A stretch of DNA of 53,367 nt from Candidatus Aenigmarchaeota archaeon CG_4_9_14_3_um_filter_37_18 (GCA_002789635.1 PFTQ01000044.1:837-54203); one strand, 5' to 3'. Counted from the first letter of the stretch, positions 9,423 through 44,296 are shown. A program made the numbers and translations. Notes: a model not told the origin generated them from the sequence alone.

Positions 9423-9830
9423 TTGATAATAGCTTTTATTATCGCGGCTACTGCGACTTTAGGAAGCCTTTTCTTTTCTGAAGCAGCAAAATATGAGCAG
9501 TGTGAATTGTGCTGGTTCCAGCGCATATTCATGTACCCGCAAGCTATAATTTTAGGAGTTGCTTTACTGAAGAAGAGGGGTGAAATTTCAGATTATAATT
9601 TGGCTCTCAGTTCAATAGGAGTGGCAATAGCAACCTATCATTATTACATCAGCCAGATCGCAAGACAGGTATCAAACACATGCTCAGCAGCAGGAATTTC
9701 TTGTGCATCCCAATATTACACGAGTTATGGCTATATCACAATACCAATGATGTCTCTAACTGTGTTCACATTAATAATAATATTTTCCTCGCTCAAAAAA
9801 ACTGATAATAAAAAGCCAACACGAAAATAA
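9423..9830 (+). CDS. DsbB/BdbC-like disulfide bond formation protein
   Basis: Four TM helices. First loop CELCWFQRIFMYP (CxxC), second loop CSAAGISC. Size and layout match BdbC. TTG start. Confidence 0.75.
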   Translation: MIIAFIIAATATLGSLFFSEAAKYEQCELCWFQRIFMYPQAIILGVALLKKRGEISDYNLALSSIGVAIATYHYYISQIARQVSNTCSAAGISCASQYYTSYGYITIPMMSLTVFTLIIIFSSLKKTDNKKPTRK

Positions 9831-12357: not shown

Positions 12358-13005
12358 ATGCTGAATCTACTCCCGCTGATCTTGCCCTTAATTCTTATAG
12401 GAATAATTTTTCTACTGATAATAAAATCAGAAATCAACAAAAAATTTGGAAGACAGTTTGCAAGAACATTTGTTGGCATATTTGTGATCGCATATTCAAT
12501 AAACAATAAAACCATCTTATTGGGATTATTGAGTCTAGTTATGTTATTTCTACTGTTTATATCAGAAAGAAGCCTTTTTTTCAAAAAAATGGTAGAAGAA
12601 AAGGAAAAGAAATCAGGAAAACTCACTGGACTAATTTTATACCTTTCAATGATCATACTGACTACTATATTGTTTCCATTGTGGATTGCTGGGTGTTGCT
12701 TAATCAATTTATCATTTGCTGACGGTTTTGCAACATTCGTGGGGAAAAAGGGTAGGTCTAAGTTGATGTGGAATAAAAAAAAGACATTTGAAGGTAGCAT
12801 AACATTTCTTTTTGTTAGCTTCTTAGGCTGTTTCTTAGTTATGAGTTTTCTAAGCCCTTTCACATTAGATAGAATAATTTTATTCTCTTTAATAACTTCT
12901 TTAATAGCGAGCTTTGCTGAAAGTTTGCCAATAAAAATAGACGATAATATCACAGTTCCATTGGTTACTGGCGCTGCTCTTTATTTGTTAACTATATTAT
13001 TCTAA
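12358..13005 (+). CDS. dolichol/polyprenol kinase-like CTP-dependent transferase (COG0170 family)
   Basis: SFADGFATFVGKKGRSKL...KKTFEGSITFLFVSF...SFAESLP...DDNITVPL. The antisense 212-aa ORF is judged spurious. Confidence 0.7.
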   Translation: MLNLLPLILPLILIGIIFLLIIKSEINKKFGRQFARTFVGIFVIAYSINNKTILLGLLSLVMLFLLFISERSLFFKKMVEEKEKKSGKLTGLILYLSMIILTTILFPLWIAGCCLINLSFADGFATFVGKKGRSKLMWNKKKTFEGSITFLFVSFLGCFLVMSFLSPFTLDRIILFSLITSLIASFAESLPIKIDDNITVPLVTGAALYLLTILF

Positions 13006-15935: not shown

Positions 15936-16051
15936 GGGGTTTTGGCTCAACTTGGTAGAGCGTCAGGCTCCAGCACATCGTGCATGGAACGTTGATTTCA
16001 AGATGATATGAAGAAACCTGAAGGTTGGGGGTTCAAATCCCTCAGACCCCA
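15936..16051 (+). tRNA. tRNA-Trp (anticodon CCA) with a 42-nt intron (15974..16015) at the canonical 37/38 position
   Basis: Acceptor GGGGTTT/AGACCCC, D arm GCTC..GAGC, anticodon stem TCAGG/CCTGA interrupted after CTCCAG, T arm GGGGG-TTCAAAT-CCCTC. Confidence 0.85.
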
Positions 16052-17547: not shown

Positions 17548-18000
17548 CTACTGGCTCTTTGTGAAATTAATGAACATGAATCCCAAGTGAATATCATCAT
17601 CTGAGTATCTGATCGAAACTGGGGTTTTAAAACTTGGTTTGAAGTCCCCTCCTATAACCCATTCTTTATTGTTGTCAAGGTCAGTGACTTTTATTCTATA
17701 GATATTATCAGGATAGGATATCTCGGAGAATAGCGGGGTAGGGTTTGCTGCTAATGAGTCAAGCTTGCCCTTGTCCAAGACTCCCCTGTGTATTGTGCTA
17801 TCGGTGTAAGCCATTTTTTCAGAAGAGAGCAGGACATTCGATAGAATAACCCTTCTCCTCAATATTTCATTTTCTTCTACTGTTACTTTTACCCCTTGGC
17901 CTCTTGAGATGAAGAAGAAAACTAGCATCCCTACAAGAGCAACTGTAAGCAAGCCTACTAGCATATGAGAAAGGCTTGTCGCCTGCGCTTTTGTCCTCAT
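17548..18000 (-). CDS. type IV pilin-like protein (class III signal)
   Basis: MRTKA/QATSLSHMLVGLLTVALVGMLVFFFI N-terminus. ATGA overlap with the upstream pilin gene. Confidence 0.6.
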   Translation of the reverse strand: MRTKAQATSLSHMLVGLLTVALVGMLVFFFISRGQGVKVTVEENEILRRRVILSNVLLSSEKMAYTDSTIHRGVLDKGKLDSLAANPTPLFSEISYPDNIYRIKVTDLDNNKEWVIGGDFKPSFKTPVSIRYSDDDIHLGFMFINFTKSQ

Positions 18001-18401
18001 TTCCCATCAACCTTATACTTTTCAACGCCATTCACAACTGTCTTTTCGATTGTAAAATCTTTAGCATCTGAAAATGAGCCAGAAACATCCACTAGAACAG
18101 GATCAGACGAATCTTGCTTCCCGCTATTGAATTCCCTTGAAGCAGCAACCTCCCTATTCGATATGCCGACATCATAACTGTTATCGGAAGAAACCTTGTA
18201 TCTTATCATGATATCTCCAGGAGCTGCTGCGCTTATTGAAACTAGTGCTGCAAGATCCTTCGAAACGACTTCTGGCGAATCTATTGTGAACATGCTAATC
18301 GCTTCCTGTATGGTTGGGATAATAACAGGTATTAAAGCCACTAAAATCACCATAATACCTATTATTGAAAAAACTTCTGTTGTTTCAGCCTGGCCTTTCA
18401 T
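17997..18401 (-). CDS. type IV pilin-like protein (class III signal)
   Basis: MKG/QAETTEVFSIIGIMVILVALIPVII: short basic leader, Gly at -1, then a hydrophobic helix. Confidence 0.65.
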   Translation of the reverse strand: MKGQAETTEVFSIIGIMVILVALIPVIIPTIQEAISMFTIDSPEVVSKDLAALVSISAAAPGDIMIRYKVSSDNSYDVGISNREVAASREFNSGKQDSSDPVLVDVSGSFSDAKDFTIEKTVVNGVEKYKVDGK

Positions 18402-18479
18402 AATATAGAATGGTTTTTTGTTAAGTTAAGTTTTACAAAAAGGATATTTGTTTTAAAGATAAAAATAATATCAGATAAA

Positions 18480-19379
18480 ATGAGAAAATTAATACTATTG
18501 GGTTTTTTGGGATTAGTTCTACTCTTTTCTGGCTGTGATAATCAGACTACAAATGGGTGCAGCGACAGCGGCCTGAAGCTTGTGGACTACAATGTTTATC
18601 CTCTCGAAAAAATCTATCAAGGAGATATAGTGGCGTTTGCATTCTGGCTTGAAAACAAAGGCAGCTCTACTGCGGGGAATGTTAAAGTCGACTTCTTTGA
18701 TACGCCTGGCTTTGATGTAACAAGGCTCGAATGCCAAGAAAATCCATCCGGAGGCAAGGAATGCAATTTGGGGGAGATACTTTCTGAAGAAGGCTGCCTA
18801 GGCGAAATGAGACAGGTAAAAACTGAGTTGAGGGCTAGAGGTTCCGGGGACAATACTGTCAGCTTTGCTGTTATATATAATTACCATGGCAATTCCCTGC
18901 TTTCATTTGGTATTTGGGAGAAGAATTCAAAAAACCAGTATGGAAACAAACGCATTGGAAGCACATATGGGCCTGTTAAAGTTGAGATAAACCCAGGCTT
19001 CTTGATGAGCAGAATAGTTGACGACAGGAAGCAAACAACCACTGAATGGGTGGAAGAAGGCCAGAGATTCACTGTTAACATTAATGTCAGGGAGAGCGGA
19101 AATTTTGGCCAAAGCTCATCAAAAACATCAATATCAAACTTTAAGGTAAAGCTCAATTATTTAGAGCCTATAGCTGATGGGAAATGCGATTTTATTCTGA
19201 GCGGGGAATATTTAGTGCCAAAAGAATCTATTGAAGTCCCTACAAAGAAGCCTTTAAAATGTGATTTAAAAGCTAATGATAATATCGGGCAGGAATGGAT
19301 TACCGGCGGGATAGAGGTGGATTATGATTATGAGTATAGCTTTGTCAAGCAGCAAACCTTCAAGATAAACACCGAATAA
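18480..19379 (+). CDS. secreted lipoprotein-like protein with a CARDB-like module
   Basis: MRKLILLGFLGLVLLFSGC lipobox-like signal. YQGDIVAFAFWLENKGSSTAGNVKVDFF module. Confidence 0.6.
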   Translation: MRKLILLGFLGLVLLFSGCDNQTTNGCSDSGLKLVDYNVYPLEKIYQGDIVAFAFWLENKGSSTAGNVKVDFFDTPGFDVTRLECQENPSGGKECNLGEILSEEGCLGEMRQVKTELRARGSGDNTVSFAVIYNYHGNSLLSFGIWEKNSKNQYGNKRIGSTYGPVKVEINPGFLMSRIVDDRKQTTTEWVEEGQRFTVNINVRESGNFGQSSSKTSISNFKVKLNYLEPIADGKCDFILSGEYLVPKESIEVPTKKPLKCDLKANDNIGQEWITGGIEVDYDYEYSFVKQQTFKINTE

Positions 19380-19416
19380 AGTTATTATTGTCTCTTTCTA
19401 AATATTAACAGATAAT

Positions 19417-20742
19417 ATGGATGACGAGGAAAGGATTAAAAGGCTAGCGGAATTAGCCAGACAAAAAGAAGAAATGGAAAGAAAAAGGCTAGCCGAGCAG
19501 CAGAATCTTCAAGGCAGAGACCAAAAAACCCAACAAGAACTAAAAGAGAAACAACTGCAGGAACTCAAGAGGCAGCAGGAATTAAGCCAAAGAATGGGTG
19601 CCCCTAGTGGGGGACAGCCTGGATATCAGTCATCTTCTCCTCAAAAAGATTCAACTGTTAAGTATATTGCAATAGTTCTTGTTATTGCTGTTGTAGGCTT
19701 TTTCGGATATAGGTATAAGGATGATATATTATTTGAGGGAAGTAAAATCCTGCAATCCATAGAGAGAATGCTTCCGGATGACCTTTTGAAGTCTTGGTCT
19801 TGTATATTGGGGACTTTAACAGGGAAAAAATCAGCTGATGAATGCTTCGGAAATGTCCCCCCAATAATAACGAATCAGAATGATTTTATTGATGTGAAAT
19901 TTGGCTCTGGAGATGGATATCCCCTAAACCCAGAAAGATTGCAAAAATATTCGCTGCCTGTTAGGATTTCAAACAGCAAGGAAAAAGCTTTGAATGTTGA
20001 GGTTAATGGTGTGCTTCATTGCACTGTTGAATCCCCGCTTATGGATGGTGATATTGAAGAGTCTTTTAATTTAAAGGCTTCTACTCCTTCCTTCAGAATA
20101 GAGAAAGATGAAGTGTCATTAAGGCTTGAAAGCGAGGAAGCACTGCCATGCACTCTGAAAGCGTGCACTAATGCTGAAGTTATTGCAAGCTATTCAGACC
20201 AGAACGATTTTACAACTTCATTTACATTAGGGAAGACAAGGCAGGACGCATTAAAAACTCAAATAAAATCAGAAACAAGCCCTGGTCCTATTTCTATAAG
20301 AGCTGAGTTTCATCCCCTGAATTATTATTATCTTGATCAGAATGTTCAAGAAACTGAAGTTATTTTTACATTCACAAATAAAGGAACCGGAAAAGCAGAT
20401 ATAGCTAGTTTTCAGGTAGGGGTAGATGAAGATACAAAAGATTTTTTTAGCAGTTTTGGCCCCTGCTCATGCTCTTGTCATGAAGATTTTAATAAAATGA
20501 TTGGCGAAGCAAAAGAATTTAGTATAAACTCCGATGGGAAGAATGGAATGGATGTGATTTTAGACCAGAATTCTAGATGCGAATGCCTATGTGATTTTAA
20601 GATCAACGAAAATAAAGTTAATGGCTTGCCAGATTATGGAGCTAGCAAAACAGCAAATTTCTATTTTAGTGTTTTTTATAAATTTGACAGGACTGAAAAA
20701 TATGCAGGTTTGGCTCTTCAGGGGGATAAGTGCAGTGATTAA
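19417..20742 (+). CDS. type II membrane protein with cytoplasmic K/E/Q coiled coil, one TM and a Cys-containing ectodomain
   Basis: N-terminal EERIKRLAELARQKEEMERKRLAEQQ..., TM segment YIAIVLVIAVVGFFGY, and a 340-aa external part. Confidence 0.6.
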   Translation: MDDEERIKRLAELARQKEEMERKRLAEQQNLQGRDQKTQQELKEKQLQELKRQQELSQRMGAPSGGQPGYQSSSPQKDSTVKYIAIVLVIAVVGFFGYRYKDDILFEGSKILQSIERMLPDDLLKSWSCILGTLTGKKSADECFGNVPPIITNQNDFIDVKFGSGDGYPLNPERLQKYSLPVRISNSKEKALNVEVNGVLHCTVESPLMDGDIEESFNLKASTPSFRIEKDEVSLRLESEEALPCTLKACTNAEVIASYSDQNDFTTSFTLGKTRQDALKTQIKSETSPGPISIRAEFHPLNYYYLDQNVQETEVIFTFTNKGTGKADIASFQVGVDEDTKDFFSSFGPCSCSCHEDFNKMIGEAKEFSINSDGKNGMDVILDQNSRCECLCDFKINENKVNGLPDYGASKTANFYFSVFYKFDRTEKYAGLALQGDKCSD

Positions 20743-20767
20743 TCCACAGTTTAAATAAGTTCAAATC

Positions 20768-23047
20768 TTAACCTAACCTTGAAATAAAATCATTCCAATC
20801 AAAAGCAGGGCCCGGATCAAATTTTCCTGATGTTACTTCATCATGGCCTATGATATGAGTTCTGTCTACTGTAATGCCGGAATTTCTTCTAATAATGTCA
20901 GAAACAAGCCCGATCAAAGAATTCATTTGTTCTTCAGGGTAGGCCTCCCAGTAATCAGTGTTGCCTCGAAGAGCATGCGCAAGGAATTTGCATCTGTCTG
21001 AATTTACACCTAACTTGTCATCGCACAAATAGCCATAATTAACAACTTCTATGCCTATTGATCTTGGGTTCATCCCTTCAATGCAATTGGGATCAGATTG
21101 GGTTTTTGTGCATCCAGCATGCCAAGCACTATATTTCTCATCAACAAGCCTGTATATTGTCCCATCTCTGTCTACAACATAATGAACACTCGCTTTTCTA
21201 TTTTTATCATCTGCAAGCGTATCCAGCGTTGGACCAATGTCCCTTGCTGTGTAATGTATCACAACCCTGTCTATAATTGTCTCCCATCTTGTGCTGTCAT
21301 ATTTCGACGAGTCAGCTGGGTGGTCTATTATATCGAGAGAACCGCCAATAGTTGTTGTCGTGGTTGTAACTTCTTTCTTCTGGCATCGTTTCCAATCCTG
21401 ATAGCCAGGGTAAACTGTATCATCTACATACCTTAATATTATCTTCGCTTTACCGCCTGGATCATTGCAATATACATTATATTTTTCGCACATAGCTTTA
21501 CAGGCATCAGTCATCACCTGCATGTTGTTCATGCTTTCCCACTTACTGTCTCCTGCTATTTTTATAGCCTCTTGAATAGTAGCCTGGCCTCCATTATAAG
21601 AAGCTAACCCTAATTTTATCAGGTTTTCAAAGTCATAATTATTGTAGCTTCCCATGGAAGATAATTTACTTTTCAGTATTCTGACGCCGCATCTTATGTT
21701 TAACCCAGCACTAGTTGAAAGCTCTTCCCATGAGCCTATGCCATCGCAGCCTTTTGCGGATGATAGAGTTACCTGCATTATACCGCATCCGCTCGACGCA
21801 GAACAGGTTGTAAACTGATTCCAATTGCTCTCCTGTGTTATTACTGCAGCTACCAAATAAGTGGCTTCCTCTAAAGGTATGTAATCTGTCAAGCCCTCGG
21901 TTGAAATCGCACTAACTATTGTGTCTTTGTATGAATTATATTTGTTGACATGCGGGGAAGCTAAGCCCGGGCAAGAAACCAATTCACCAGGCACACCATT
22001 ACTTCTACAGGCTAAGTCTGGGCATTTATTCACACCAGAAGCGCTCCATGAGCAGGAATCAGTGCATGAAGAATCCATACAGTAGCAGTTTGTACCGGGA
22101 ATTATTGACATTTCTGTTATAGATTCCTTTATTTGGCATGTATTTTTATCAGGCTCAAACTCATAATTCCCGACAACAACATAAAATTTCAACCCAATCT
22201 TCTTGTAATCAGTTTTCTTCGTTAAGTAGTCGTAGACAGGATATTCCTGGGAATTGTCTGTTATTTCAACCAAATACCTTAAAGCAAATTTTGACTCATC
22301 TCCATCTAGAACATAGATTTTGCTTGGCGTTAATCTTATTTCTATATCTTCAGAATTGTAGCCTGTTTTTCCTGGGATTCCTTCATTCAATTCTCCTCCA
22401 AGGTTGTGGATCTTATCCATAGCTTCATTATAAGTCGCGGAATCTGGAATTTTCTTCCCTAAAATATCATCATCAAGAAATTCTTTTTTTCCTATCTCAA
22501 ACAGCCTTAACGTTCTGGGTTCAGCGTCAGCTGCAATTTCCAATCCTTCATTAATTTCAACCATCGGCCTTTTCAACCCTAACGCTTCAGCAGCAACTGC
22601 TTTAATTGTTGTTTTGCCTGAAGACCCGCTAAGATCAACAGAATTATATTCCGGGATATCAACTTCCCCTTTAAAAGATTTTGCGTATTTGTTGAAGAAG
22701 TGCAGCGTTGTTGTTTCCAAGTTTTTTTCATACTCAGGAAATTCAATGCTGTCATATATCCTCCAGTAGGGTATGCAGTCATAGCAGTCTGTTTTTTCCA
22801 GGTTATAATAGCCGCCCTGGTCAGAAACAAGATAGGATGATTGGTAGAAGGAATTCTTCAGGGACTGGGTCAAGGATATTTTCGACAGCTCCACTTTGTT
22901 TATCCCGTCTATGATGTTCACTTCCATTGCTGCTCTTTTTGAGATGTTTGACCTGTTAAAAAAAGAGATAAACACTACTCCAGAAACCATGATCAATCCA
23001 AACATCCCTATTAAAAGAATGGAAAATGGGCCTATTCCTTTTCTCAA
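20768..23047 (-). CDS. pilin-like protein fused to an SLT lytic transglycosylase domain and an N-acetylmuramoyl-L-alanine amidase (amidase_2/PGRP) domain
   Basis: N-terminus MRKG/IGPFSILLIGMFGLIMVSGVVFISFF. SLT motifs VITQES, GCGIMQVT, LNIRCGVRIL, LASYNGG (nt about 21413..21925). TTTTTT linker. Amidase_2 motifs VVIHYTA, SVHYVVDRDGTIY, SAWHAG, NPRSIGIEVVN, IIGHDEV..GKFDPGPAFDW (nt about 20771..21295). Confidence 0.85.
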   Translation of the reverse strand: MRKGIGPFSILLIGMFGLIMVSGVVFISFFNRSNISKRAAMEVNIIDGINKVELSKISLTQSLKNSFYQSSYLVSDQGGYYNLEKTDCYDCIPYWRIYDSIEFPEYEKNLETTTLHFFNKYAKSFKGEVDIPEYNSVDLSGSSGKTTIKAVAAEALGLKRPMVEINEGLEIAADAEPRTLRLFEIGKKEFLDDDILGKKIPDSATYNEAMDKIHNLGGELNEGIPGKTGYNSEDIEIRLTPSKIYVLDGDESKFALRYLVEITDNSQEYPVYDYLTKKTDYKKIGLKFYVVVGNYEFEPDKNTCQIKESITEMSIIPGTNCYCMDSSCTDSCSWSASGVNKCPDLACRSNGVPGELVSCPGLASPHVNKYNSYKDTIVSAISTEGLTDYIPLEEATYLVAAVITQESNWNQFTTCSASSGCGIMQVTLSSAKGCDGIGSWEELSTSAGLNIRCGVRILKSKLSSMGSYNNYDFENLIKLGLASYNGGQATIQEAIKIAGDSKWESMNNMQVMTDACKAMCEKYNVYCNDPGGKAKIILRYVDDTVYPGYQDWKRCQKKEVTTTTTTIGGSLDIIDHPADSSKYDSTRWETIIDRVVIHYTARDIGPTLDTLADDKNRKASVHYVVDRDGTIYRLVDEKYSAWHAGCTKTQSDPNCIEGMNPRSIGIEVVNYGYLCDDKLGVNSDRCKFLAHALRGNTDYWEAYPEEQMNSLIGLVSDIIRRNSGITVDRTHIIGHDEVTSGKFDPGPAFDWNDFISRLG

Positions 23048-23463
23048 TTAATCACCAAAACCAAATTTTCAACCAGCTTGTCTGGATTGTAGGGTAAAGT
23101 TATGTTCACGCTTGAAGTGTATTCCTTAGGTGTGCAGCCAGAGCTCTTTGCCAACACTTTGGAAGGGGTTGATAGTTTGTAGCATCTGCCCTCAACTAAT
23201 TTGTCCAGCTTATCCTTGAGGAATGTTAGGTCGTCTGGCTGGCCAAAGGCTAGGTTGTCGCCGATCAATTCCTGGACAGTTTTTCCGTCGTAAGTAGAGG
23301 TTAGCAATGAGATTAGAATCATCTGCGTATTTTCATAATTCTCTTCATACTGGATTACTCTCAGGGAAGGGGCTGTAATAAATTTAGGGACTATTAAGAT
23401 TCCAAATACCAAGAACACAGTAAAAACCAGGACAACAAATGGTATGTTCAATTGGCCTTTCAT
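23044..23463 (-). CDS. type IV pilin-like protein (class III signal)
   Basis: MKG/QLNIPFVVLVFTVFLVFGILIV. ATGA overlap with the downstream hydrolase gene. Confidence 0.65.
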   Translation of the reverse strand: MKGQLNIPFVVLVFTVFLVFGILIVPKFITAPSLRVIQYEENYENTQMILISLLTSTYDGKTVQELIGDNLAFGQPDDLTFLKDKLDKLVEGRCYKLSTPSKVLAKSSGCTPKEYTSSVNITLPYNPDKLVENLVLVIN

Positions 23464-23659
23464 AACAATAGATTGATTTCTCAGGTTAAATTTTTACAAG
23501 GGGGGTGGTTTCAGATGACAGTCTGATTATCGGATTTTATGGCTTTTGATAATATTTTATTTAAACGAAGTTATCTTTTTTGATAACTATAATGCAAGAA
23601 AATAAGATTTAATGCTTAAATATTCTGCGAGGATTGCATATCAAAATAAAGAGGAATAA

Positions 23660-23935
23660 TCAGCCTAAATTTTTACAATCATCTATGCTGTTCGGCTTTT
23701 CTATACCGAGGCTTTCACAATCTTCTGGTTTTATATCTCCCCAATCTCCGGGGTCCTGGCCTTTCAGAGTCCATCTTTCGCAGTAATTCATGTATTTTGC
23801 CGTGCATGTTGCTTTGTTGGCTTCGATCGGAGTTTGGCCTATAAAAAACCAAAAAGTAACAAGGGTAAAAATAAGAAGTAAACCCATCACAGCTATTAAA
23901 AACAGCGTGTGGGTTGCTATTGCTTTTGGTGACAT
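23660..23935 (-). CDS. short four-Cys pilin-like protein
   Basis: MSPKA/IATHTLFLIAVMGLLLIFTLV. CTAKYMNYCERWTLKG is paralogous to the next gene. Confidence 0.6.
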   Translation of the reverse strand: MSPKAIATHTLFLIAVMGLLLIFTLVTFWFFIGQTPIEANKATCTAKYMNYCERWTLKGQDPGDWGDIKPEDCESLGIEKPNSIDDCKNLG

Positions 23936-23969
23936 AATAACATTTTGATTTTATTTTCTAATATAATTA

Positions 23970-24251
23970 TTAGCCTAAAACTCCTTCACAATAAGCTCGT
24001 GTGAGAATCGCCCAACTATAACTTGAACAATCTGGATTTTTCGCTACAAATGTTTCTGTAGCCGCAAGAGTTGAATAACCTTTTCTCGACCAATCTGCAC
24101 AAAACGTGAATGCTTTCGTTTGACAGAACTTTTCAGTTGATGCTCCTCCACCCCTTCCAATCCATGTCCAAACCAAATATCCTAAGCCGACAATAACTAT
24201 CAAACCTATTACAAGACCAACAATAGTTTGTGTTGCTACTCCTTTTGCCAT
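23970..24251 (-). CDS. short four-Cys pilin-like protein
   Basis: Preferred start MAKG/VATQTIVGLVIGLIVIVGL lies 4 nt after AGGTGA (24256..24261). CQTKAFTFCADWSRKG is paralogous to the 23660..23935 gene. Confidence 0.65.
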   Translation of the reverse strand: MAKGVATQTIVGLVIGLIVIVGLGYLVWTWIGRGGGASTEKFCQTKAFTFCADWSRKGYSTLAATETFVAKNPDCSSYSWAILTRAYCEGVLG

Positions 24252-24322
24252 ACATTCACCTAGCAATTATTTTTGGATTTTTAGTTATTAAATATATCGG
24301 TTGCAAACAAGTAAGTAAAAAT

Positions 24323-26857: not shown

Positions 26858-27077
26858 CTAAATTCCCTAAAAACCCAAGCAGCCCTTTGCAGAACATGCT
26901 ACATTTTATTCCTGCCATTATCCTCTCAACACTCTGGAAGACTATCTCTTTCGCCCCGGTCAAAAAAATCCACAATAAAGCTAAAGCTATTATTGCCAGA
27001 ACTAAGGATATTATTGTTGTTAATATGCTGCCTGAAACACCTTTTCCCACAATCTCATCCCCATAGTTTCGGAACAC
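26835..27077 (-). CDS. short pilin-like protein
   Basis: ..GKG/VSGSILTTIISLVLAIIALALL. The probable real start is GTG 27050 (MGKG/VSG..), 4 nt after the stop of the 44-aa ORF. Confidence 0.55.
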   Translation of the reverse strand: MFRNYGDEIVGKGVSGSILTTIISLVLAIIALALLWIFLTGAKEIVFQSVERIMAGIKCSMFCKGLLGFLGNLGGMCSGC

Positions 27078-27189
27078 CCTTTAAGATATTTATCGCCGAG
27101 AGATAAAATAAAGCTAACACTATAATCACCACTATCAGCAGGATAATAAACCAGATCATATACCTTGAAACATCTCCTTTGCTGTTCAT
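27055..27189 (-). CDS. 44-aa mini pilin-like ORF (not in the ORF track)
   Basis: MNSKG/DVSRYMIWFIILLIVVIIVLALFYLSAINILKGVPKLWG. Its ATG shares ATGA with the platform gene stop. Confidence 0.45.
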   Translation of the reverse strand: MNSKGDVSRYMIWFIILLIVVIIVLALFYLSAINILKGVPKLWG

Positions 27190-29141
27190 GCAACCCACAT
27201 CATCTTAATCATTGAAGTCAAAATCAGGTAGAGCACAATCATAGTGATTGAATAGATTATAATTGCGGTCAGCAGGTTTTTGCCTAAATCATATGTTCTT
27301 TGGATCTTCTCATCCCCATACTCTATTATGCTCATGAATATCGAAAGCATCACAACAACCTCTATCATATAAAACCCGACAATCAGCTGAAAATAATGAA
27401 TGGATATTATTTTATCGATGCTCAAAATATTCTTGAATATGTCCCCGCCTAGATCCCCGACAGGGCCATATGACCCTAAATTCCCCTGAACAGACTCTGT
27501 CCATCCGCTTAAGCTCAGCATCATGCTTATCATCATCGCAGTCAATGCAACAACAATTCCAGAAGACAAGGGCGCTAATGCCAGAGCCTGAATCTTCATC
27601 GTTGATATTACCTCAGAAAGAACATCCTTCAGATATTCTTCAACTTCAGATATATTCCTGAGATAGTTTGATATTGATATTAAAGATTGGGATAGGACAG
27701 CAGAGCCGGAAGAAGAGATTTCAGAGATGGCTTTTAGAATGGCTTTTATCAGGTTGGATGGGTACTGGTATATTGCGCCGTTCTTTTCGTTGAATACAGC
27801 GTTCTGAAAAGTCATCCCGAAGATCTGGATGTTGCTTATTATAGAGCCAAAGAGATCAGACACTTTCAATTCCTGTATTTTTGTCTTGATCTTGAGAATA
27901 TTGCTTTCAATTGAGCCGCCGCTTCTTATCTGGTGGCCTAACTGGAACAAGACCATATGCAATTCGCTCTCCATCTCAACAATCTTGTTCTTAGCCTTCA
28001 TCTTAGGCATGCTATCCAGGAAAGAGTATGAAATTATACCTCCGGAAACGCCAACTAAAACTAACAAAGAATAAAGCAACAAGCCAAAACTAAAGTGCTC
28101 TTGGGATGAAAGCAATTTATAAAGGCCGAACCCGGATAAAAGAATTATCATCAAAACTGGGATTATTATCTTCAGGCTAAAAATCTTCTGGAAAATGCTT
28201 TTCTTTATTTCAATTATCTCTGGCTGATGGAAAGTTGTTGGCCTTTTAGTCAAAAATGATCTCATCAGCAGGAATATAACAATCGGCAGCGAGATATTAT
28301 AGCCTATAACAAGAGCTATTGGCTTTACAGTGTCAGGCATAAAAACCGCTATCATCGGGAAGAAAATCAGCCCTATTATCGGAAGCAAAATCCCAAGGGC
28401 GTTCAGGAGTGTTAGAGATGACCTCAACTCTCTAGAATAATCTTTCATCTGGTTTTTTGACCCCAAAAGGACTATTTCAACAGCTTCCTCCAGAACCTTA
28501 TCCCTTTCTGCGTAGCTTTGATAAAGGGATGTTTTTATCAGGTTGATCGCCTGCGTGAATTCCTCGTTCCCAAGCTTCCATTTTTTTATGAAGTCGTCCA
28601 AAGCAACTTCCACTGAATAATATTTTCCATTATAGACATCCCACATTAATTCAGACAAATCGCTTCCCATAGGCCCTTTCAGATTCGTTGCGGCAAAAAT
28701 AACTGCATTCTCTAGATTGGACCTGACTTTCATCGAAACCGTCAAATAAAGCACAGTCAACACCATCTCAGAAGTTGCCTTTATTTTGTATTGCGTGACG
28801 TAATAGGAAGGGTATCTGAAAATGAAGTAGCCCATGCCTAAAATACCGGAGAATAGAATAAGCATTAATTTGAACGGGATTATTCCTATGGCTGTCAATA
28901 ATACACTCAACAAGGAGAAGCCAGCAGTAAAAAGAATTGTGAATGAAAGAACGCCTGCAGGAGTTATATAAAGGTGGCAGAAATCTATTGGCTCTTGGAA
29001 TTTTTTCTGCATCTTCTCAGGGAATGGAATCGATAAAATTCTCTCTGAAAAATTGCACAGCTTCTCGTAAACAGATGTTTTCTTTGCTTTTAATTTTGAT
29101 TGAAGAAGCTCTTCTTTTGTTTTTTGAATATCAAACACCAA
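27186..29141 (-). CDS. FlaJ/TadC/PilC-like polytopic platform protein of a type IV filament system
   Basis: 651 aa with two clusters of TM helices separated by soluble helical regions. It lies directly downstream of, and overlaps, the secretion ATPase gene, as in fla/pil operons. The call rests on architecture and context, not on a motif. Confidence 0.6.
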   Translation of the reverse strand: MVFDIQKTKEELLQSKLKAKKTSVYEKLCNFSERILSIPFPEKMQKKFQEPIDFCHLYITPAGVLSFTILFTAGFSLLSVLLTAIGIIPFKLMLILFSGILGMGYFIFRYPSYYVTQYKIKATSEMVLTVLYLTVSMKVRSNLENAVIFAATNLKGPMGSDLSELMWDVYNGKYYSVEVALDDFIKKWKLGNEEFTQAINLIKTSLYQSYAERDKVLEEAVEIVLLGSKNQMKDYSRELRSSLTLLNALGILLPIIGLIFFPMIAVFMPDTVKPIALVIGYNISLPIVIFLLMRSFLTKRPTTFHQPEIIEIKKSIFQKIFSLKIIIPVLMIILLSGFGLYKLLSSQEHFSFGLLLYSLLVLVGVSGGIISYSFLDSMPKMKAKNKIVEMESELHMVLFQLGHQIRSGGSIESNILKIKTKIQELKVSDLFGSIISNIQIFGMTFQNAVFNEKNGAIYQYPSNLIKAILKAISEISSSGSAVLSQSLISISNYLRNISEVEEYLKDVLSEVISTMKIQALALAPLSSGIVVALTAMMISMMLSLSGWTESVQGNLGSYGPVGDLGGDIFKNILSIDKIISIHYFQLIVGFYMIEVVVMLSIFMSIIEYGDEKIQRTYDLGKNLLTAIIIYSITMIVLYLILTSMIKMMWVA

Positions 29142-31389
29142 GTTTTTCTTTTAATTTTCCCTTAAACCAAATATCCCAATTTTTGTAGATTTCTTTTGAG
29201 TCCAAGCTCCCTAACTCCTGCCTGACATCATCTGAAATTTGGTGGAACATGTCATTCGCATCGATAACCCATTCCGCTTCTAGTATCTCTCTCCTGTTTA
29301 ATTTGTTTGAATACTCAACCATTTTTTCCTTTATTTTTCCCCTCAGCAATATGTTGTCCCAGACCGCATCCCAGTTCCCATGCCACTCCTTGACTCGCTT
29401 CGCAATCTCGTTAATAATATGTGATTCCCCGTTGATTAAAGTGCTAGTCGGCTTTAATTTATCTTCCTTAGCAGAGTATTCCATCAGGTTGACAAACCCA
29501 TTCTCATCCATAGGATCGTTCTTCCAATGCTTCCTTATTTCAGTAACTTCAACAACCCTCCTGTTCCTGTGAAGCCCATCAGCGCTCCTGATCATCCCAC
29601 AAATCGTGATTATGTCTGTGGCTTTAAAGCTTGTTGTCGGGACTCCTAGGTCATTCACAACCCTGTCAAACACTCCGTAAGCTGACTCGCCGTGTATTGT
29701 TCCTGCAACTACATGGGCCAAAGCACCGATCCTCATAGCCTCCCAAAGGGCTTTAGCCTCGTGGCTTCTGACCTCGCCTATTATTAAGCAGGAATCCCCC
29801 AGACGCAGAGCCGTTCTTAAGGCTTCATCTGCAGGCAGCTCAGATTCCACTCTTGTGATGACTGACCTTGACTTCATCCTCTCAATATTATAGCCTAGAT
29901 TTCTCATGCTTACAATTGGGAGCTCAAGCGTATCTTCAACCGAAACTATCCTAAACTTCCTCATTATCTCAACCATTGTTGCACCCAATAGGCTGCTTTT
30001 GCCGCTTGACCTTCCGCCTGCAAACAAGAGCGAGCGGGAGCCTTGAATAAGGAAATTCATCAGCCCAGAATACAAAGGATCAAACATCTTTTCATTTATG
30101 AATAAAGGGTATGTCCATGGCTTATCCCTGTGCCTCCTTAATGCATATCCTATACCTTCAGGGCTTAGTGTTCTTGTTATTGCTGCAACCCTAGCCCTCC
30201 CGCCAGGAACCATAAGCTCTGTGTCAAGGACAGGATTGGCTTCATCCAGCGGCCTGCCTGACAGCATCCTAAATCTCGTCGCCCAGCTTTCAGCATCTTC
30301 TTTAGTTGGGATAAGGTTTGTCTCGCACTCTTCAAAGTCGCTATGACCGACAAAAATAGGGGCAATGCCTATTGGCGAGTTGATGTAGATGTCCTGTAAT
30401 TTAGAGTCTGCCAACAAAACTTCAAGAATGCCGAAACCAGCAGTATACCTTGCAAGTATGTTTGTCATTTCATTTAATTCTGCCGAAGAAAGATGAACCC
30501 CCCTCTCATCTGCTATTTTAAGGATTGTGTCTTTTCCCATGTTCATGAAAACTTCCCTTGCCCTTTCTGGTTGGACAAATTCTGTTTCTGTCGGCTTGTG
30601 CTCTGCAAGGTATCTTCTTGCTGTATCAAGGATAAAATATTGGCTTTCTGAGAGCCTAAATTCTGGCGGTGTTATGTAGTAGAATGGCCTTGTTTTGCCT
30701 GGCACTTTGAAAATTTCAACAATGATTTTGGTTGGCAGCTCATACCTATCGAGCATCCTTGCCCCCTTTGGTGGGATAGAAACGTATCTTGTCAGCATAA
30801 AAGTGGGCCTTATCAGGGGCGTGAAGATTTTTCTATATATTGAGCGGTCTCCTAGCCTATAGCCATGAATCTTATCCTTGACAGCCTGTATAAGCATGGT
30901 TGACTCCAATTTTTTGTTGATTTCTTCAAGAAGCCTTATGTAATCTTCGGCTGCTTTTTTAACATCTCCCCTGCTTTTCAATGCCCTTGACCTATGCTTC
31001 CTAATAAATCTTTTGATCTGAACATAAGCAGCAATAGGATCTCTCCTTAACATTTCCTTGAGGACAAGATTCAATTCATTCGATATATTTGGTATGAAGT
31101 GCTTGATCTCAGCAATAAAGGGGCTCTCTAGAATTCTGTCTTCGTTCAAAAACTTGTCATACAACAGAGCTATTTCTACTAAAAGCCTTGTTTGGTCGTA
31201 ATCATATTCATGCTCCCTGCTTTCTGTTAAAATAATCCTTTCTACTTTTTTAACTTCCCTGATCTTATCGATGGTTGTAGCCATGCATACATCAAAATCC
31301 TCGACTGAGGAGCCAAAAACACAGCCTTTGCAGTTGACTTTTATTATTCCTTCTATAACTTCATAGTCGCAGACCAAAATTCCCACCAA
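29131..31389 (-). CDS. GspE/FlaI/PilB-family type IV filament assembly ATPase with a long N-terminal extension
   Basis: In order: Walker A-like AGGRSSGKSS, Asp box SVEDTLEL, Walker B CLIIGEVRSHEA, His box AGTIHGESA. GTG start. The N-terminus carries C-x13-C-x2-C-x12-C. Confidence 0.85.
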   Translation of the reverse strand: MVGILVCDYEVIEGIIKVNCKGCVFGSSVEDFDVCMATTIDKIREVKKVERIILTESREHEYDYDQTRLLVEIALLYDKFLNEDRILESPFIAEIKHFIPNISNELNLVLKEMLRRDPIAAYVQIKRFIRKHRSRALKSRGDVKKAAEDYIRLLEEINKKLESTMLIQAVKDKIHGYRLGDRSIYRKIFTPLIRPTFMLTRYVSIPPKGARMLDRYELPTKIIVEIFKVPGKTRPFYYITPPEFRLSESQYFILDTARRYLAEHKPTETEFVQPERAREVFMNMGKDTILKIADERGVHLSSAELNEMTNILARYTAGFGILEVLLADSKLQDIYINSPIGIAPIFVGHSDFEECETNLIPTKEDAESWATRFRMLSGRPLDEANPVLDTELMVPGGRARVAAITRTLSPEGIGYALRRHRDKPWTYPLFINEKMFDPLYSGLMNFLIQGSRSLLFAGGRSSGKSSLLGATMVEIMRKFRIVSVEDTLELPIVSMRNLGYNIERMKSRSVITRVESELPADEALRTALRLGDSCLIIGEVRSHEAKALWEAMRIGALAHVVAGTIHGESAYGVFDRVVNDLGVPTTSFKATDIITICGMIRSADGLHRNRRVVEVTEIRKHWKNDPMDENGFVNLMEYSAKEDKLKPTSTLINGESHIINEIAKRVKEWHGNWDAVWDNILLRGKIKEKMVEYSNKLNRREILEAEWVIDANDMFHQISDDVRQELGSLDSKEIYKNWDIWFKGKLKEKLGV

Positions 31390-31436
31390 TAACTAAATTA
31401 TATTTGTTCAATTTTACAATAATTATTATTGATTTC

Positions 31437-31835
31437 ATGGTATTTGAAAGAAAACCACAAACTCAGTTCAATCAGGTGAACACCGAAGTAGTAAGGATTA
31501 CAAATGATAACACAAGAAGGATTAGAATCCTTGAACAAAGCTTAGATTCAGCGAGAACCAGAATAAGCTCCCTTGAAGAAAGAATGATAGATGAAATGGG
31601 CGACATCAAAAAATGGATGGATCAATTGTCTTTAGATATAAAGGAAATTTCAAAAGAATTAAAGGAGATAAGGAGCGAGTTGCTGAGGGTGAATAAGGAT
31701 CTTGAAAAAACAGCCAGAAAAACAGAGGTCAAGGAGCTTGAAAGCCTGTTAGACCTGTATGATCCGATAAAATCACATTTTATAACAAGGGGAGAAGTGA
31801 TGAGGATTTTAGAAAGAGAATTGAATAAAGTTTAA
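31437..31835 (+). CDS. coiled-coil protein, unknown function
   Basis: Heptad-rich sequence RIRILEQSLDSARTRISSLEERMIDEMGDIKKWMDQLSLDIKEISKELKEIRSELLRV. ATG 31437 is preferred over TTG 31404. Confidence 0.55.
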   Translation: MVFERKPQTQFNQVNTEVVRITNDNTRRIRILEQSLDSARTRISSLEERMIDEMGDIKKWMDQLSLDIKEISKELKEIRSELLRVNKDLEKTARKTEVKELESLLDLYDPIKSHFITRGEVMRILERELNKV

Positions 31836-31889
31836 TACTCAGAAAAGAAAATTTAAATTATGAAATCAATTATTATTAAGGTGTAAAAA

Positions 31890-32591
31890 TTGATAAAATT
31901 TCTTTCATCAAATAAAAAACAGCCAGAAAAAGCCCCTAGTTTAGGAAGAGGTTCGATACCATCAGAAAAGATAAAAACCCTAAGCGGGAGGGGATTTTCA
32001 GAGCCAGAAATTATTGATGTCCTTAGAAAAGAAGGCTATAGCTCTGAAGAAATAGATGCTGGACTGACGCAGGCGTTGAAATTAGGCGTGACAGGGGGAG
32101 ATCAAAGCTTTGTTTCAAAGCCGCCAACTCTTCAAGAGCTTCAGATGCAGCAGGATCAATTTACTCAAGGGCAAAATGAAATGACTAACATGATGCAGGA
32201 GACCCAATTTGCTCCGCAGATACCAGAGCCTTCAATGCAATTTCAGCAGAATTATTATCAAGATGATTACAACACAGAAGAGCTTGTTGAATCAATAGTC
32301 CAGGAAAGGATGGGTGAATTGGATACTAAACTGAACGAGTTCAGGGCTAAATACAATAATATGGAAAGGAAAATGATGGACCTTCACAATCAATTGTCAG
32401 TTGTTTCTAAAGGCAGGAACGAGGCTGAAAATACCATCCTAAATAAAATAGATTCTTTTGGATCTACGCTTGGCGAGATGAATGCGAGGCTTTCCAGCCT
32501 TGAGAAAGCATTCAAGGAAGCACTGCCAGCATTAATAGAGAGTGTACGCTCATTAACTGACCTTGTCGCAAGATTTAAAAGAGAAACTTAA
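31890..32591 (+). CDS. protein with a small N-terminal helical domain, a Q-rich linker and a C-terminal coiled coil
   Basis: GFSEPEIIDVLRKEGYSSEEIDAGL, then a Q/M-rich low-complexity stretch, then a heptad region. TTG start lies 8 nt after AGGTG. Confidence 0.55.
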   Translation: MIKFLSSNKKQPEKAPSLGRGSIPSEKIKTLSGRGFSEPEIIDVLRKEGYSSEEIDAGLTQALKLGVTGGDQSFVSKPPTLQELQMQQDQFTQGQNEMTNMMQETQFAPQIPEPSMQFQQNYYQDDYNTEELVESIVQERMGELDTKLNEFRAKYNNMERKMMDLHNQLSVVSKGRNEAENTILNKIDSFGSTLGEMNARLSSLEKAFKEALPALIESVRSLTDLVARFKRET

Positions 32592-32628
32592 ACCAAGTTA
32601 TTTATTGTCACTTTCTTAATTATTTTTC

Positions 32629-33165
32629 ATGGTCAATCCTTTTCAGATAGTTGCAGAGAGGCTTAGAGATTTAGGGTTCTTTGATTTCTTTATACCTTGG
32701 GTGATGACGTCGGCCCTTTTATATGCGCTTCTTAGAAAATCTAAAATATTCGGCGACGATGCAATAGTAATAAATTCTGTGCTGTCGATATCTGTGTCTT
32801 TTTTTACATGGGGTTTTATAGTGCTTGCTGGCGGGGGCGGCATAGGGGCTGCTTTATCTAAATTTGTCACAGAAATAGTTCTTATTGGGATAGGATTTTT
32901 ATTCATAGTCCTGATTGCCGGCATATTTATTCCAGATTTAAAGGATTTCTTAAGCACTCTCCCGAATAAAGGTGCGACATTCTTGATAATAGCTCTTGTG
33001 ATAGGAGTGACTCTGATGATTGGAAGTGGTTTATTCAATTTGGGCTCCGCGATATATAATCTTCTTAGTGCATTTGGGAAAGTTCCTGGAGGGGATGCGG
33101 GATTGTTGATTGTGGCTATTCTTATTTTAGTTCTTTTACTCATAATTATATCGATAGTAAGGTGA
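32629..33165 (+). CDS. membrane protein, paralog 1 of 3 (unknown family)
   Basis: Shared N-terminal motif L..LGFFDFFIPWVMTSALLYALLRKSKIFG plus 4 TM helices. Confidence 0.6.
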   Translation: MVNPFQIVAERLRDLGFFDFFIPWVMTSALLYALLRKSKIFGDDAIVINSVLSISVSFFTWGFIVLAGGGGIGAALSKFVTEIVLIGIGFLFIVLIAGIFIPDLKDFLSTLPNKGATFLIIALVIGVTLMIGSGLFNLGSAIYNLLSAFGKVPGGDAGLLIVAILILVLLLIIISIVR

Positions 33166-33169
33166 TTGG

Positions 33170-33799
33170 TTGGCTGATGATATATTTACAATAGCAATAA
33201 AAAAACTGCAGGAGATGGGTGCATTCAACTTCCTGTTTCCATTCATGCTTACTACTGCTATCTTCTATGGGCTGCTTAGAAAATCAAAAGTATTCACTGC
33301 AAAAAAAGATCTGTTCGACGCGAACCTGAAAAAAATAGGGGAGATAGAAGTATCAGAATCTGTAAATGCCGTCGTTGCTTTGATTGCTGGGTTCATGGTC
33401 TGGGCCTATCCTATACTTTCTGGCGTGAATATAGAGCAGCAGCTGTCTACATTCTTTCTTCATGGATTGATTGTTACATTGGTTTTGCTTGTGGTTATGA
33501 TGATAATGAGCATGTTTATGCCACCTGACTTACCAACAGAATTACAAAAACAGTTTTTGAAAGGAGGAACAGTAGGAGTGGTCTTAGTTGCTGTGGTTGT
33601 AATAGGAGTTATAATCTTTTTGACAAGCGGATTGATCAACCTGATAGCCGGACCTATATTTGCGAGTATAGATTTAGGCAATGACACTGTGATGACAATA
33701 GTTGTGTTAGGTTTATTAATATTGCCGATAATATTTATATTCAGGGGAAGTGGTACAATAACCACTGACGAAAAGGAAAATAATAAAGGTGGTAAATAA
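33170..33799 (+). CDS. membrane protein, paralog 2 of 3 (unknown family)
   Basis: L.EMGAFNFLFPFMLTTAIFYGLLRKSKVF plus 4 TM helices. TTG start follows AAGGTGA. Confidence 0.6.
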   Translation: MADDIFTIAIKKLQEMGAFNFLFPFMLTTAIFYGLLRKSKVFTAKKDLFDANLKKIGEIEVSESVNAVVALIAGFMVWAYPILSGVNIEQQLSTFFLHGLIVTLVLLVVMMIMSMFMPPDLPTELQKQFLKGGTVGVVLVAVVVIGVIIFLTSGLINLIAGPIFASIDLGNDTVMTIVVLGLLILPIIFIFRGSGTITTDEKENNKGGK

Positions 33800-34393
33800 A
33801 TGTCTTTGTTCAGCGGCGTTGTAGATTCACTTTTTAAATACGGAGTTTATGAATTCTATTTGCCTTTTCTGCTGACATTTGCTATATTCTATGCATTAAT
33901 AAGAAGAACCAGGGTTTTCGGTGGAGATAAAGTTGCAAACAATATTAGTACTTTAGTATCATTAGTCGCCGCGCTTTATGTGATGGCTTTCAGCCCGTTT
34001 GCAGGCTCTATCAGCACGTTCTTTGCAACATTTTTTGCAGGGACTTCTGTTGTTTTAGTAGTTATACTATCACTGCTCATGATAACAATGATGTTGTTCG
34101 GGCCATTCTGGACTAAATTTGGGGATATGGAATGGTGGGGGAAACATCTGTGGGTATTTGTTATTATTGGGCTATTAATTACATTATCTTTATTTGTTGC
34201 CAGTGGGGGAGGAAAATTATTTGGCCTGATTATACCCCCAAATTTTGGAATACCTGGCTTAAATGGAGAAGATGTTGCAATAATAATACTACTATTGTTG
34301 ACTGTCGGAATAGTATTCCTGGTGCAGGGAACAAGCAGTGAAGAGGAAAAAGACCCAGAATTCACGATCCAAAAACGCAAGAAAGATTCATAG
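33800..34393 (+). CDS. membrane protein, paralog 3 of 3 (unknown family)
   Basis: L.KYGVYEFYLPFLLTFAIFYALIRRTRVFGG plus 4 TM helices. It starts 1 nt after the paralog 2 stop. Confidence 0.6.
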   Translation: MSLFSGVVDSLFKYGVYEFYLPFLLTFAIFYALIRRTRVFGGDKVANNISTLVSLVAALYVMAFSPFAGSISTFFATFFAGTSVVLVVILSLLMITMMLFGPFWTKFGDMEWWGKHLWVFVIIGLLITLSLFVASGGGKLFGLIIPPNFGIPGLNGEDVAIIILLLLTVGIVFLVQGTSSEEEKDPEFTIQKRKKDS

Positions 34394-44265: not shown

Positions 44266-44296
44266 GAATTTAATTGTGAAAAAATAAATATAATCT

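Follow-up and report, generated by a model that had tools for sequence, protein, structure and literature searches.

A 53-kb stretch of DNA from Candidatus Aenigmarchaeota, a tiny groundwater archaeon, called here in its full length the window, contains at positions 17548-34393 a type IV filament locus with an assembly ATPase, a platform protein, nine pilin-like proteins and a set of accessory genes. One of the pilin-like proteins, w759, ends in two murein hydrolase domains and is a modular carrier whose hydrolase modules are interchangeable, a generalisation that goes beyond an earlier note on this DNA. Every gene listed in that note was found at the position stated there, and the note's description of the subunit repertoire as large and heterogeneous was upheld, the nine pilin-like proteins ranging from 44 to 836 amino acids (aa). 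The profile searches that it had proposed recognised T2SSE in the ATPase, T2SSF in orthologues of the platform protein, and SLT plus Amidase_2 in w759. The window is archaeal, because it contains a signal recognition particle RNA of archaeal type (43408-43682) and because of the names attached to matches of the platform protein, one of which is 100% identical and named 'Candidatus Aenigmarchaeota archaeon CG_4_10_14_0_8_um_filter'. Ten independent related loci were recovered through platform and carrier homologues (L007, L008, L009, L012-L015, the partial L016, L017 and the more distant L010), and orthology among them was assigned with BLAST and family hidden Markov models (HMMs).

Assembly machinery

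The assembly ATPase (29131..31377, minus strand) is 748 aa long when read from TTG at 31377, the longest open reading frame (ORF) extending to 31389, and combines a FlaI/TadA/GspE2-class core with an N-terminal extension of ~270 aa. It matched Pfam T2SSE (3.9e-14) and, among solved structures, A. fulgidus GspE (2oap, 6e-29), the Tad-pilus CpaF (3e-15) and FlaI (9e-13), whereas the matches to VirB11 and PilT were far weaker (1e-5 to 1e-4). Both leading NCBIfam matches, FlaI (8e-35) and TadA (3e-32, the 'conjugal transfer-associated' model), fell under their cutoffs; the FlaI equivalog scored 120.5 bits against a cutoff of 550 and the BasE equivalog 54.2 bits against a cutoff of 1000. Its Walker A motif, GGRSSGKS, belongs to the sole P-loop ORF (at least 80 aa) of the window. 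Orthologues with 59-83% identity occur in 9 of the 10 related loci, and the ATPase of L017 (745 aa) was recognised by Pfam T2SSE only. These comparisons support a grouping with filament ATPases, not with the conjugation or DNA-uptake ATPases that the earlier note had set against its own reading.

The four minor pilin-like proteins and the short candidate major subunit described below recall the layouts of Com systems and type II secretion systems (T2SS). A competence-pilus-like filament for DNA uptake or transport, whose hydrolases would give it access to the DNA or cytoplasm of bacteria that it contacts or that have lysed, could also draw on the TadA match of the ATPase, on a weaker match to ComGA (1e-9) and on the finding that DPANN archaea lack nucleotide synthesis (PMC8407114). 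However, the structures closest to the ATPase are GspE2, CpaF and FlaI, and no ComEA, ComEC or nuclease domain and no recognisable DNA-binding module was found in the locus; we regard this explanation as highly unlikely.

The platform protein (27186..29141, minus strand; 651 aa) is polytopic, with about 10 hydrophobic segments, and has 105 homologues. It had no Pfam match of its own; PF00482 (T2SSF) was matched by 12 of 36 sampled orthologues (42-47% identical; best 1.1e-15), and a profile of the platform family gave only a weak match to GspF among Protein Data Bank (PDB) sequences (0.32). Judged through its orthologues, the protein is a divergent platform protein of the T2SSF/TadC/FlaJ family.

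When the DNA was first read, no A24 prepilin peptidase, FlaH or archaellin had been recognised in the window, and the Pfam scans and the single P-loop ORF agree with that impression. Peptidase_A24 was matched by none of the multi-transmembrane ORFs of the window (Pfam E<=0.01; E<=10 for unassigned ORFs). For FlaH/KaiC, there was no second P-loop ORF of at least 80 aa in the window and no KaiC match among the neighbours of the related loci, which were scanned, as for the peptidase, over +/-10 kb. Archaellin, FlaF/G and FlaC/D/E had no family match among the locus proteins in Pfam. The multi-transmembrane ORFs at 10909-11745 (minus strand), 12358-13005 (plus strand) and 43723-44409 (minus strand) matched no family even at relaxed thresholds and contain no prepilin-peptidase motifs. 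The 215-aa one of these three contains a FADGFATFVGKK segment that may be dolichol-kinase/CTP-transferase-like.

These results support the view that the locus encodes a type IV filament and not an archaellum, as the earlier note had held. The one genomic study centred on Aenigmarchaeota that we found lists 'FlaG, FlaI, FlaJ and adjacent archaellum homologs' (PMC8407114), of which FlaI, FlaJ and the adjacent homologs are probably the genes described here; what was likely a mis-annotation of the locus as a partial archaellum would thereby be corrected. That annotation, together with FlaI being the best NCBIfam model of the ATPase, is what speaks for an archaellum remnant or another motility organelle. 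Against it stand the FlaI score of 120 bits under a cutoff of 550, the lack of FlaH, archaellin, FlaF/G and FlaC/D/E matches, and subunits of 44-836 aa that are Cys-rich or enzyme-bearing, so that we consider a motility function very improbable.

The carrier protein and its enzyme modules

The 759-aa product of w759 begins with a carrier domain (22118..23047, minus strand; residues 1-310) that starts M-R-K-G/IGPF (here and below, the slash follows the K/R-G/A pair) and consists of a 71-residue helix and an alpha/beta head. It is followed by an SLT lytic transglycosylase module (21542..21859; residues 397-502; Pfam SLT, 3e-10) and an Amidase_2 module, that is, an N-acetylmuramoyl-L-alanine amidase (20807..21274; residues 592-747; Pfam, 1e-29). 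The SLT module has the family-1 motifs QES (TQES), GIMQ and SYNGG, which are conserved in homologues (A1). The amidase matched P. aeruginosa AmpDh2 (4bol, 2.7e-20) and E. coli AmiD (9e-9) in the PDB, and its HYT and IGH..K.DPGP motifs align with those of AmpDh2. By their motifs, both enzymes are apparently intact.

Homologues of the carrier form 279 cluster representatives (50% identity) at E<=1e-3, and 178 at E<=1e-10; the best 150 matches are 79-998 aa long. They share the first ~300 residues (MxKGIGPF..., with an invariant CIPYW) and diverge downstream, where the modules include SLT+Amidase_2, SLT+M15_4, SLT+C39-like, SLT+M23 and glucosaminidase; the N-domain also occurs as a stand-alone protein of 262-302 aa. 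Among 71 long members, Pfam recognised SLT in 7, M23 in 4, NlpC/P60 in 3, Amidase_2, C39_2 and M15_4 in 2 each, and glucosaminidase, Amidase_6, a polysaccharide lyase and papain in 1 each, besides fn3 and dockerin domains. The same variation is seen at the end of the related loci: the terminal gene encodes a bare carrier in L008, L015 and L017, a carrier with M23 in L012 and a carrier with SLT and M15 in L007. Other minor-pilin families can apparently bear enzymes as well. A 720-aa protein of the w139 type in L009 (w139 HMM, 6e-10) has a GH5 cellulase/mannosidase domain by Pfam, and the gene at the w150 position in L012 encodes a Glucosaminidase domain. A profile scan of genome contigs with the carrier alignment returned one short contig.

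In bacteria, lytic transglycosylases such as VirB1, BfpH and R64 PilT open the producer's own wall for a filament, and SLT genes in operons for type IV pili (T4P), type IV secretion systems (T4SS) and type III secretion systems are a known theme, going by Koraimann 2003 as cited in PMC11452946. Self-directed wall remodelling of this kind is hardly credible for the present locus, however: the producer is archaeal and archaea are expected to be without murein, many relatives keep the whole machine without any enzyme, and the cargo is polymorphic and includes endopeptidases and GH5.

The pilin-like start of the carrier was evaluated with a FlaFind-like test of our own making (not FlaFind itself), in which [KR][GAS] within the first 32 residues must be followed by a 16-residue uncharged hydrophobic window. 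In the carrier family, 121 of 157 sequences passed; position -2 was K in 119 and position -1 was G in 102, and the sequences that failed were mostly truncated gene calls or had a single Glu in the helix. As overall identity is only ~25%, conservation of the K-G pair indicates a constraint of the kind that a prepilin peptidase would impose. An AlphaFold2 model of the carrier built with a 38-sequence alignment reached pLDDT 91.2 and pTM 0.82 (a 7-sequence alignment had given pLDDT 49) and has a helix at residues 6-76 (71 residues), followed by beta-sheets and a helical insert. A GspK-like or other pilin fold was considered for this model and cannot be claimed, since Foldseek against the PDB gave no significant match.

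This lack of a pilin profile or fold match, and the lack of a peptidase in the window, would suit a simpler arrangement in which the SLT+amidase protein is a membrane-anchored ecto-enzyme with an uncleaved signal anchor, located beside or co-regulated with a plain adhesion pilus. We nevertheless think this distinctly unlikely. The K-G pair directly before the helix is nearly invariant over the 279-representative family, and in the ten related loci the four-gene minor-pilin block always ends with the carrier gene. In the window this gene begins within the pilin gene before it (TTGA), and the called coordinates give an overlap at this junction in L008, L014 and L017 as well. In addition, enzyme-free carriers exist, which a mere anchor does not explain.

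Subunits, accessory genes and related loci

All nine pilin-like ORFs of the locus passed the FlaFind-like test and none of the nine other locus genes did, which agrees with the common N-terminal pattern described when the DNA was first read. Elsewhere in the window 2 of ~40 ORFs passed, solely because the ORF extended upstream of an ordinary Sec or lipoprotein signal. Start codons were revised by ortholog comparison, after which several proteins begin M-x-K-G. All nine pilin-like genes lie on the minus strand. The smallest, w44 (27055..27189; 44 aa), begins MNSKG/DVSRY, continues into a hydrophobic helix and shares an ATGA overlap with the platform gene. By tblastn it is kept at the same position in L007 (73% over 41 aa, E 2e-10), L008 and L009, and its counterpart was called as a gene of 47-65 aa in L013-L015. 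Because position and sequence are conserved and three relatives have a gene call, the 44-aa ORF is, on comparative grounds, a real gene. The next gene, w80 (26835..27050), encodes 71 aa and 4 Cys from a revised GTG start at 27050 (MGKG/VSGS; 80 aa as the longest ORF), and its orthologues begin MGKG, MKKG or MRKG.

The large Cys-rich protein w836 (24323..26833) was originally called as w844; its revised TTG start at 26833 gives 836 aa beginning MSKG/MAEETVYK, with 66 Cys and a knottin-like C-terminus. It had no Pfam or PDB match, its positional homologue is 211-826 aa long in all relatives, and we regard it as a candidate adhesin. A Cys-rich 'CSYYRC...' module is present in two copies in w836 and is also inserted in the carrier homologue P0113, a distribution that indicates module shuffling among pilin-like proteins. 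Two short 4-Cys proteins follow. For w93 (23970..24251; MAKG/VATQ), the gene first called w98 was shortened to 93 aa by a revised ATG start at 24251; it has its own TATA-like element and a GGTGA ribosome-binding site, occurs in relatives as 2-3 duplicate copies and is the candidate major subunit. Its paralogue w91 (23660..23935; MSPKA/IATH) is linked to it by HMM cross-matches of ~1e-9. The minor pilin-like proteins other than w759 are w139 (23044..23463; MKG/QLNIPF), w134 (17997..18401; MKG/QAETTEV) and w150 (17548..18000; MRTKA/QATS), the last with an ATGA overlap with w134. PDB and Pfam searches of all the small pilin-like proteins gave no match.

The overlapping junctions reported earlier were confirmed by measurement: -11 nt between ATPase and platform genes, -4 between platform and w44 (ATGA), -4 between w139 and w759 (TTGA) and -4 between w134 and w150 (ATGA). 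The spacing is +4 between w44 and w80 and +1 between w80 and w836. The accompanying claim that the minus-strand cluster is one operon was too strong. Gaps of 71, 34 and 196 nt precede w93, w91 and w139, and the first and last of these (71 and 196 nt) contain TATA-like AT-rich elements; because of these three gaps and two elements, the main cluster is probably more than one transcription unit. The spacer between the revised divergent starts of the ATPase and coiled-coil genes (31378-31436, 59 nt) is AT-rich, and a TTATATTT element within it could act in either direction.

Beyond this spacer, divergent from the ATPase and on the plus strand, lies a gene for a 132-aa cytoplasmic coiled-coil protein (31437..31835, from a revised ATG start at 31437), with orthologues of 28% identity in L010 (E 1e-8) and 34-86% in other loci. 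A second cytoplasmic protein (31890..32591; 233 aa) has a conserved N-domain, GFSEPEIIDVLRKEGY, a Q-rich linker and a C-terminal coiled coil; its orthologues are 37-69% identical in L007, L009 and L012-L015. Next come three tandem paralogous membrane proteins with 5-6 transmembrane segments (32629..34393; 178, 209 and 197 aa), none of which had a significant family match. The idea that they are a divergent prepilin peptidase was rejected, as a 13-member alignment has no conserved Asp or other acidic residue and only P, F and G are conserved. In L009, an accessory protein related to these paralogues (2962-3915, minus strand) is extended by a Peptidase_S74 domain, an auto-cleaving intramolecular chaperone, and toxin-antitoxin or AbiEii genes occur in or beside the accessory block of L009 and L007. 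Two further plus-strand genes, at 18480..19379 and 19417..20742, encode a 299-aa lipoprotein-like exported protein (lipobox-like LLFSGC), present only in the closest relatives L007 and L012, and a 441-aa bitopic protein with a charged coiled-coil N-terminus, one transmembrane segment and a Cys-rich ectodomain, which is kept in some relatives and is often convergent at the cluster end. Neither had a match in Pfam or PDB searches.

The comparative synteny suggested in the earlier note revealed the same architecture in the ten related loci. Gene order is common to L007, L008, L009, L012-L015 and L017, including 625- and 838-kb contigs with the same housekeeping neighbours. In this canonical order, the divergent arm has 3-4 transmembrane paralogues, the 233-aa protein and the 132-aa coiled-coil protein, and the other arm has the ATPase, the platform protein, a mini-protein of ~45 aa, a protein of ~75 aa, the Cys-rich protein (211-836 aa), 1-3 genes of the w93 type, one of the w91 type, and then w134, w150, w139 and the w759-type carrier. 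Because the architecture recurs in ten independent related loci, the locus is a lineage-conserved system and not an oddity of this genome. A Woesearchaeota locus keeps together only the coiled-coil protein, the ATPase and the platform protein.

The pair w134/w150 lies inside the main cluster in L008, L009 and L013-L015, and in L017 by gene sizes and order; it is apart from the cluster in the window (17548-18401), L007 and L012. Because the canonical order holds the pair inside the cluster, it is better described as a displaced part of the canonical operon than as the separate second block that it had been taken for; from the gene orders, its position is a local rearrangement that goes with the two plus-strand genes. 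The block of coiled-coil genes and three paralogues adjoins the ATPase in the ten related loci, L013 keeping the two coiled-coil genes only, and this conservation makes the block part of the system, as had been supposed; that it replaces canonical accessory proteins is an extrapolation from synteny.

Two of the related loci have labels that do not fit easily. L016 (MHEH01000087.1, GCA_001803785.1) is a 10.7-kb contig labelled 'Nitrospirae bacterium RBG_13_43_8' that contains an archaeal platform fragment, a pilin block and a 295-aa carrier, and is almost certainly mis-binned. L008 (MFRS01000003.1, GCA_001784635.1), labelled 'Candidatus Micrarchaeota archaeon RBG_16_49_10', contains a complete locus with an ATPase 68% and a platform protein 52% identical to those of the window; its phylum label may be outdated, or the locus may span phyla.

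The locus is flanked by housekeeping genes (Alba, PCMT methyltransferase, tRNAs, diphthine-synthase-like TP_methylase and TYW2), and is therefore chromosomal and not borne on a mobile element. In the assembly collection, 202 blocks contain the exact w139 sequence, NCBI GCA_009993355.1 among them. A 20-kb region is 99.95-99.98% identical in six other samples, so that none of the subunits is hypervariable. Elsewhere in the window, a full-length Rfam tRNA match (56.8 bits) over 116 nt at 15936-16051 (plus strand), not in the ARAGORN output, is probably an intron-containing archaeal tRNA. A 506-aa protein (6614-8134, minus strand) that starts with a signal, contains several Ig-like/fn3-like repeats and ends in a transmembrane segment looks like an S-layer or surface protein. 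A DsbB-family disulfide-bond-formation gene (9423-9830, plus strand; Pfam PF02600, 6.7e-11) suggests extracytoplasmic oxidative folding in this archaeon, which would fit Cys-rich exported subunits.

Proposed mechanism and comparison with known systems

Our preferred reading, to which we give even chances of being right or wrong, is an enzyme-armed pilus or pseudopilus that acts on bacterial murein. In this mechanism, a prepilin peptidase encoded elsewhere would cleave after K/R-G/A, and the FlaI/TadA-class ATPase and the TadC/FlaJ-like platform would polymerise the small disulfide-bonded subunits w93/w91 and perhaps w80 and w44. The choice of w93/w91 as main filament subunits follows from their duplication in relatives and from their own promoter-like element and Shine-Dalgarno sequence. 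The four minor pilin-like proteins (w134, w150, w139 and the N-domain of w759) would prime or cap the filament or form a tip complex, a role modelled on that of the four minor pilins in bacterial T4P and T2SS. The ~300-aa carrier domain would insert in the filament through its N-terminal helix, here extended by the lytic transglycosylase and the AmpDh2/AmiD-like amidase. The murein-cutting enzymes would thus be displayed outside the cell, presumably at the tip, where they could bind and locally breach bacterial walls, for attachment, for access to a host or prey, or to release wall fragments. The convergent bitopic protein would be a system-specific accessory part, and so would the divergent block with its two cytoplasmic coiled-coil proteins and its three membrane-protein paralogues. 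To our knowledge archaea lack murein, so the substrate must be bacterial; we infer the bacterial target in this way, together with prepilin peptidase cleavage, filament incorporation, tip location and enzyme activity.

Several observations weigh against an enzyme-armed pilus. The nine pilin-like proteins matched no curated pilin family (Pfam E<=0.01), and none was matched at Pfam E<=10 by the eight other than w759 or at NCBIfam E<=0.1 by the five that were scanned. Foldseek of the carrier model against the PDB gave no pilin or pseudopilin match (best E 0.016, TM score <=0.15), so that the label 'pilin' reflects the N-terminus and gene context. No prepilin peptidase was found in the 53-kb window or within +/-10 kb of the related loci that were checked. 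Most members of the carrier family have no recognisable enzyme, so that hydrolysis is an addition to the core function and not that function itself. The hosts favoured for Aenigmarchaeota in the literature are archaea, and bacteria have been explicitly discounted (PMC8407114). Finally, long and short filaments give the same evidence here, and the non-murein cargo (GH5, polysaccharide lyase, papain and dockerin) suits polymer scavenging.

The last two points lead to a bindosome- or T2SS-like surface display, in which a short pseudopilus or an envelope-embedded array would scavenge wall debris, with no long pilus and no attack. The Sulfolobus bindosome is a precedent for class III-signal enzymes assembled by a T4P-like system (PMC3047682), the non-murein cargo favours display somewhat, and the single P-loop ORF of the window leaves no retraction ATPase. 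Yet the BasE score of 54 bits is far below the cutoff of 1000, the locus proteins gave no match to substrate-binding-protein domains, the duplicated small 4-Cys subunits with a promoter-like element resemble a major pilin, and the cargo is dominated by murein-specific domains. On balance we consider surface display unlikely. The earlier note had proposed an adhesion or attack pilus; 'attack' derives solely from the peptidoglycan-hydrolase domains, which surface display or scavenging fits equally well. As family assignments, the archaellum, the bindosome and self-wall remodelling were each rejected, on the FlaI and BasE scores, the absence of FlaH from the window and the archaeal producer.

A stronger form of the enzyme-armed pilus is somewhat unlikely. 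It would be a contact-dependent bacteriolytic or wall-breaching device in Aenigmarchaeota and possibly other DPANN archaea, with the tip as a polymorphic-effector carrier whose module is matched to the wall type of the bacterial host or prey. If true, this would make it the first 'armed pilus' of an archaeon and would provide direct genomic evidence of cross-domain parasitism or predation on bacteria by the phylum. The locus bears on the question of which organisms these archaea interact with and provides a concrete testable hypothesis, namely that Aenigmarchaeota engage bacterial walls physically.

Archaeal T4P loci with many unrecognisable pilins were catalogued by Makarova, Koonin & Albers 2016 (PMC4858521), and 'dark-matter pilin' islands of DPANN archaea were described by Makarova et al. 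2019 (PMC6393860, Fig. 2A). The present locus resembles them in its ATPase and TadC-like gene followed by pilin-signal proteins of no known pilin family, and in its cytoplasmic coiled-coil partner. Subclade 4F, which has the cytoplasmic coiled-coil arCOG07564, and 'nanoarchaeal' ATPases without identifiable cognate pilins are described in the same work (PMC4858521); the likeness to subclade 4F consists of the coiled-coil partner alone and is a lead from that work. What sets the locus described here apart from the catalogued ones is a full subunit set whose order is fixed over ten related loci, a subunit that carries murein hydrolases, and accessory genes for three membrane-protein paralogues, for a second cytoplasmic protein and for a bitopic protein in convergent orientation. 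The five conserved accessory proteins, and the sixth, bitopic one of some relatives, have no counterpart known from other type IV filaments.

Bacterial modular type IV pilins, such as S. sanguinis PilB and PilC, bear mostly adhesive modules, and the only peptidases predicted in their survey were S74 and M26 (Raynaud et al. 2021, PMC8179133). In common with them and with GspK, w759 has a functional module grafted C-terminally on a pilin module, a predicted tip location and many modules per carrier, and it closes a four-gene minor-pilin block of which it is the largest member. The differences are that the machinery here is archaeal, that the modules are murein hydrolases and not adhesion domains, and that the carrier head gave no structural match to GspK or any pilin by Foldseek. 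The 'modular pilin' idea is thereby extended to archaea and to enzymatic cargo, with a new pilin-like carrier family.

Lytic transglycosylases encoded by filament or secretion operons are known from VirB1, BfpH and R64 PilT, which share a family-1 SLT domain with w759; those enzymes act on the sacculus of the cell that makes them and are separate from the filament subunits, whereas here the enzyme is fused to the subunit. In the Sulfolobus bindosome (Bas), too, non-filament cargo proteins bear class III signal peptides and depend on an ATPase and a membrane protein of T4P-like type, but that cargo consists of sugar-binding proteins, in contrast to the full set of small pilin-like subunits found here. 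Polymorphic toxin systems, the type VI secretion effectors Tae/Tge and AmpDh3, and bacteria-killing T4SS (PMC6536674) likewise join a conserved delivery domain at the N-terminus to exchangeable C-terminal modules, which are murein amidases, peptidases or glycosidases. Unlike those effectors, the putative delivery device here is an archaeal type IV filament, and an immunity gene was neither needed nor seen.

A literature search returned no prior description of pilin-carried murein hydrolases in DPANN or other archaea, an absence that does not prove that none exists. Large extracellular SLT-domain proteins in Woesearchaeota and Pacearchaeota have been read as a means of attachment to bacterial walls or of their degradation (Castelle et al. 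2021, PMC8204110; PMC10936187), and they too are cases of a DPANN archaeon encoding a murein lytic transglycosylase. Those proteins, of up to 3,000 aa, belong to other phyla and have no link to a pilus, whereas the SLT domain described here is one interchangeable module on a pilin-like carrier in a type IV filament operon. The locus thus joins two separately known oddities of DPANN archaea in one testable device.

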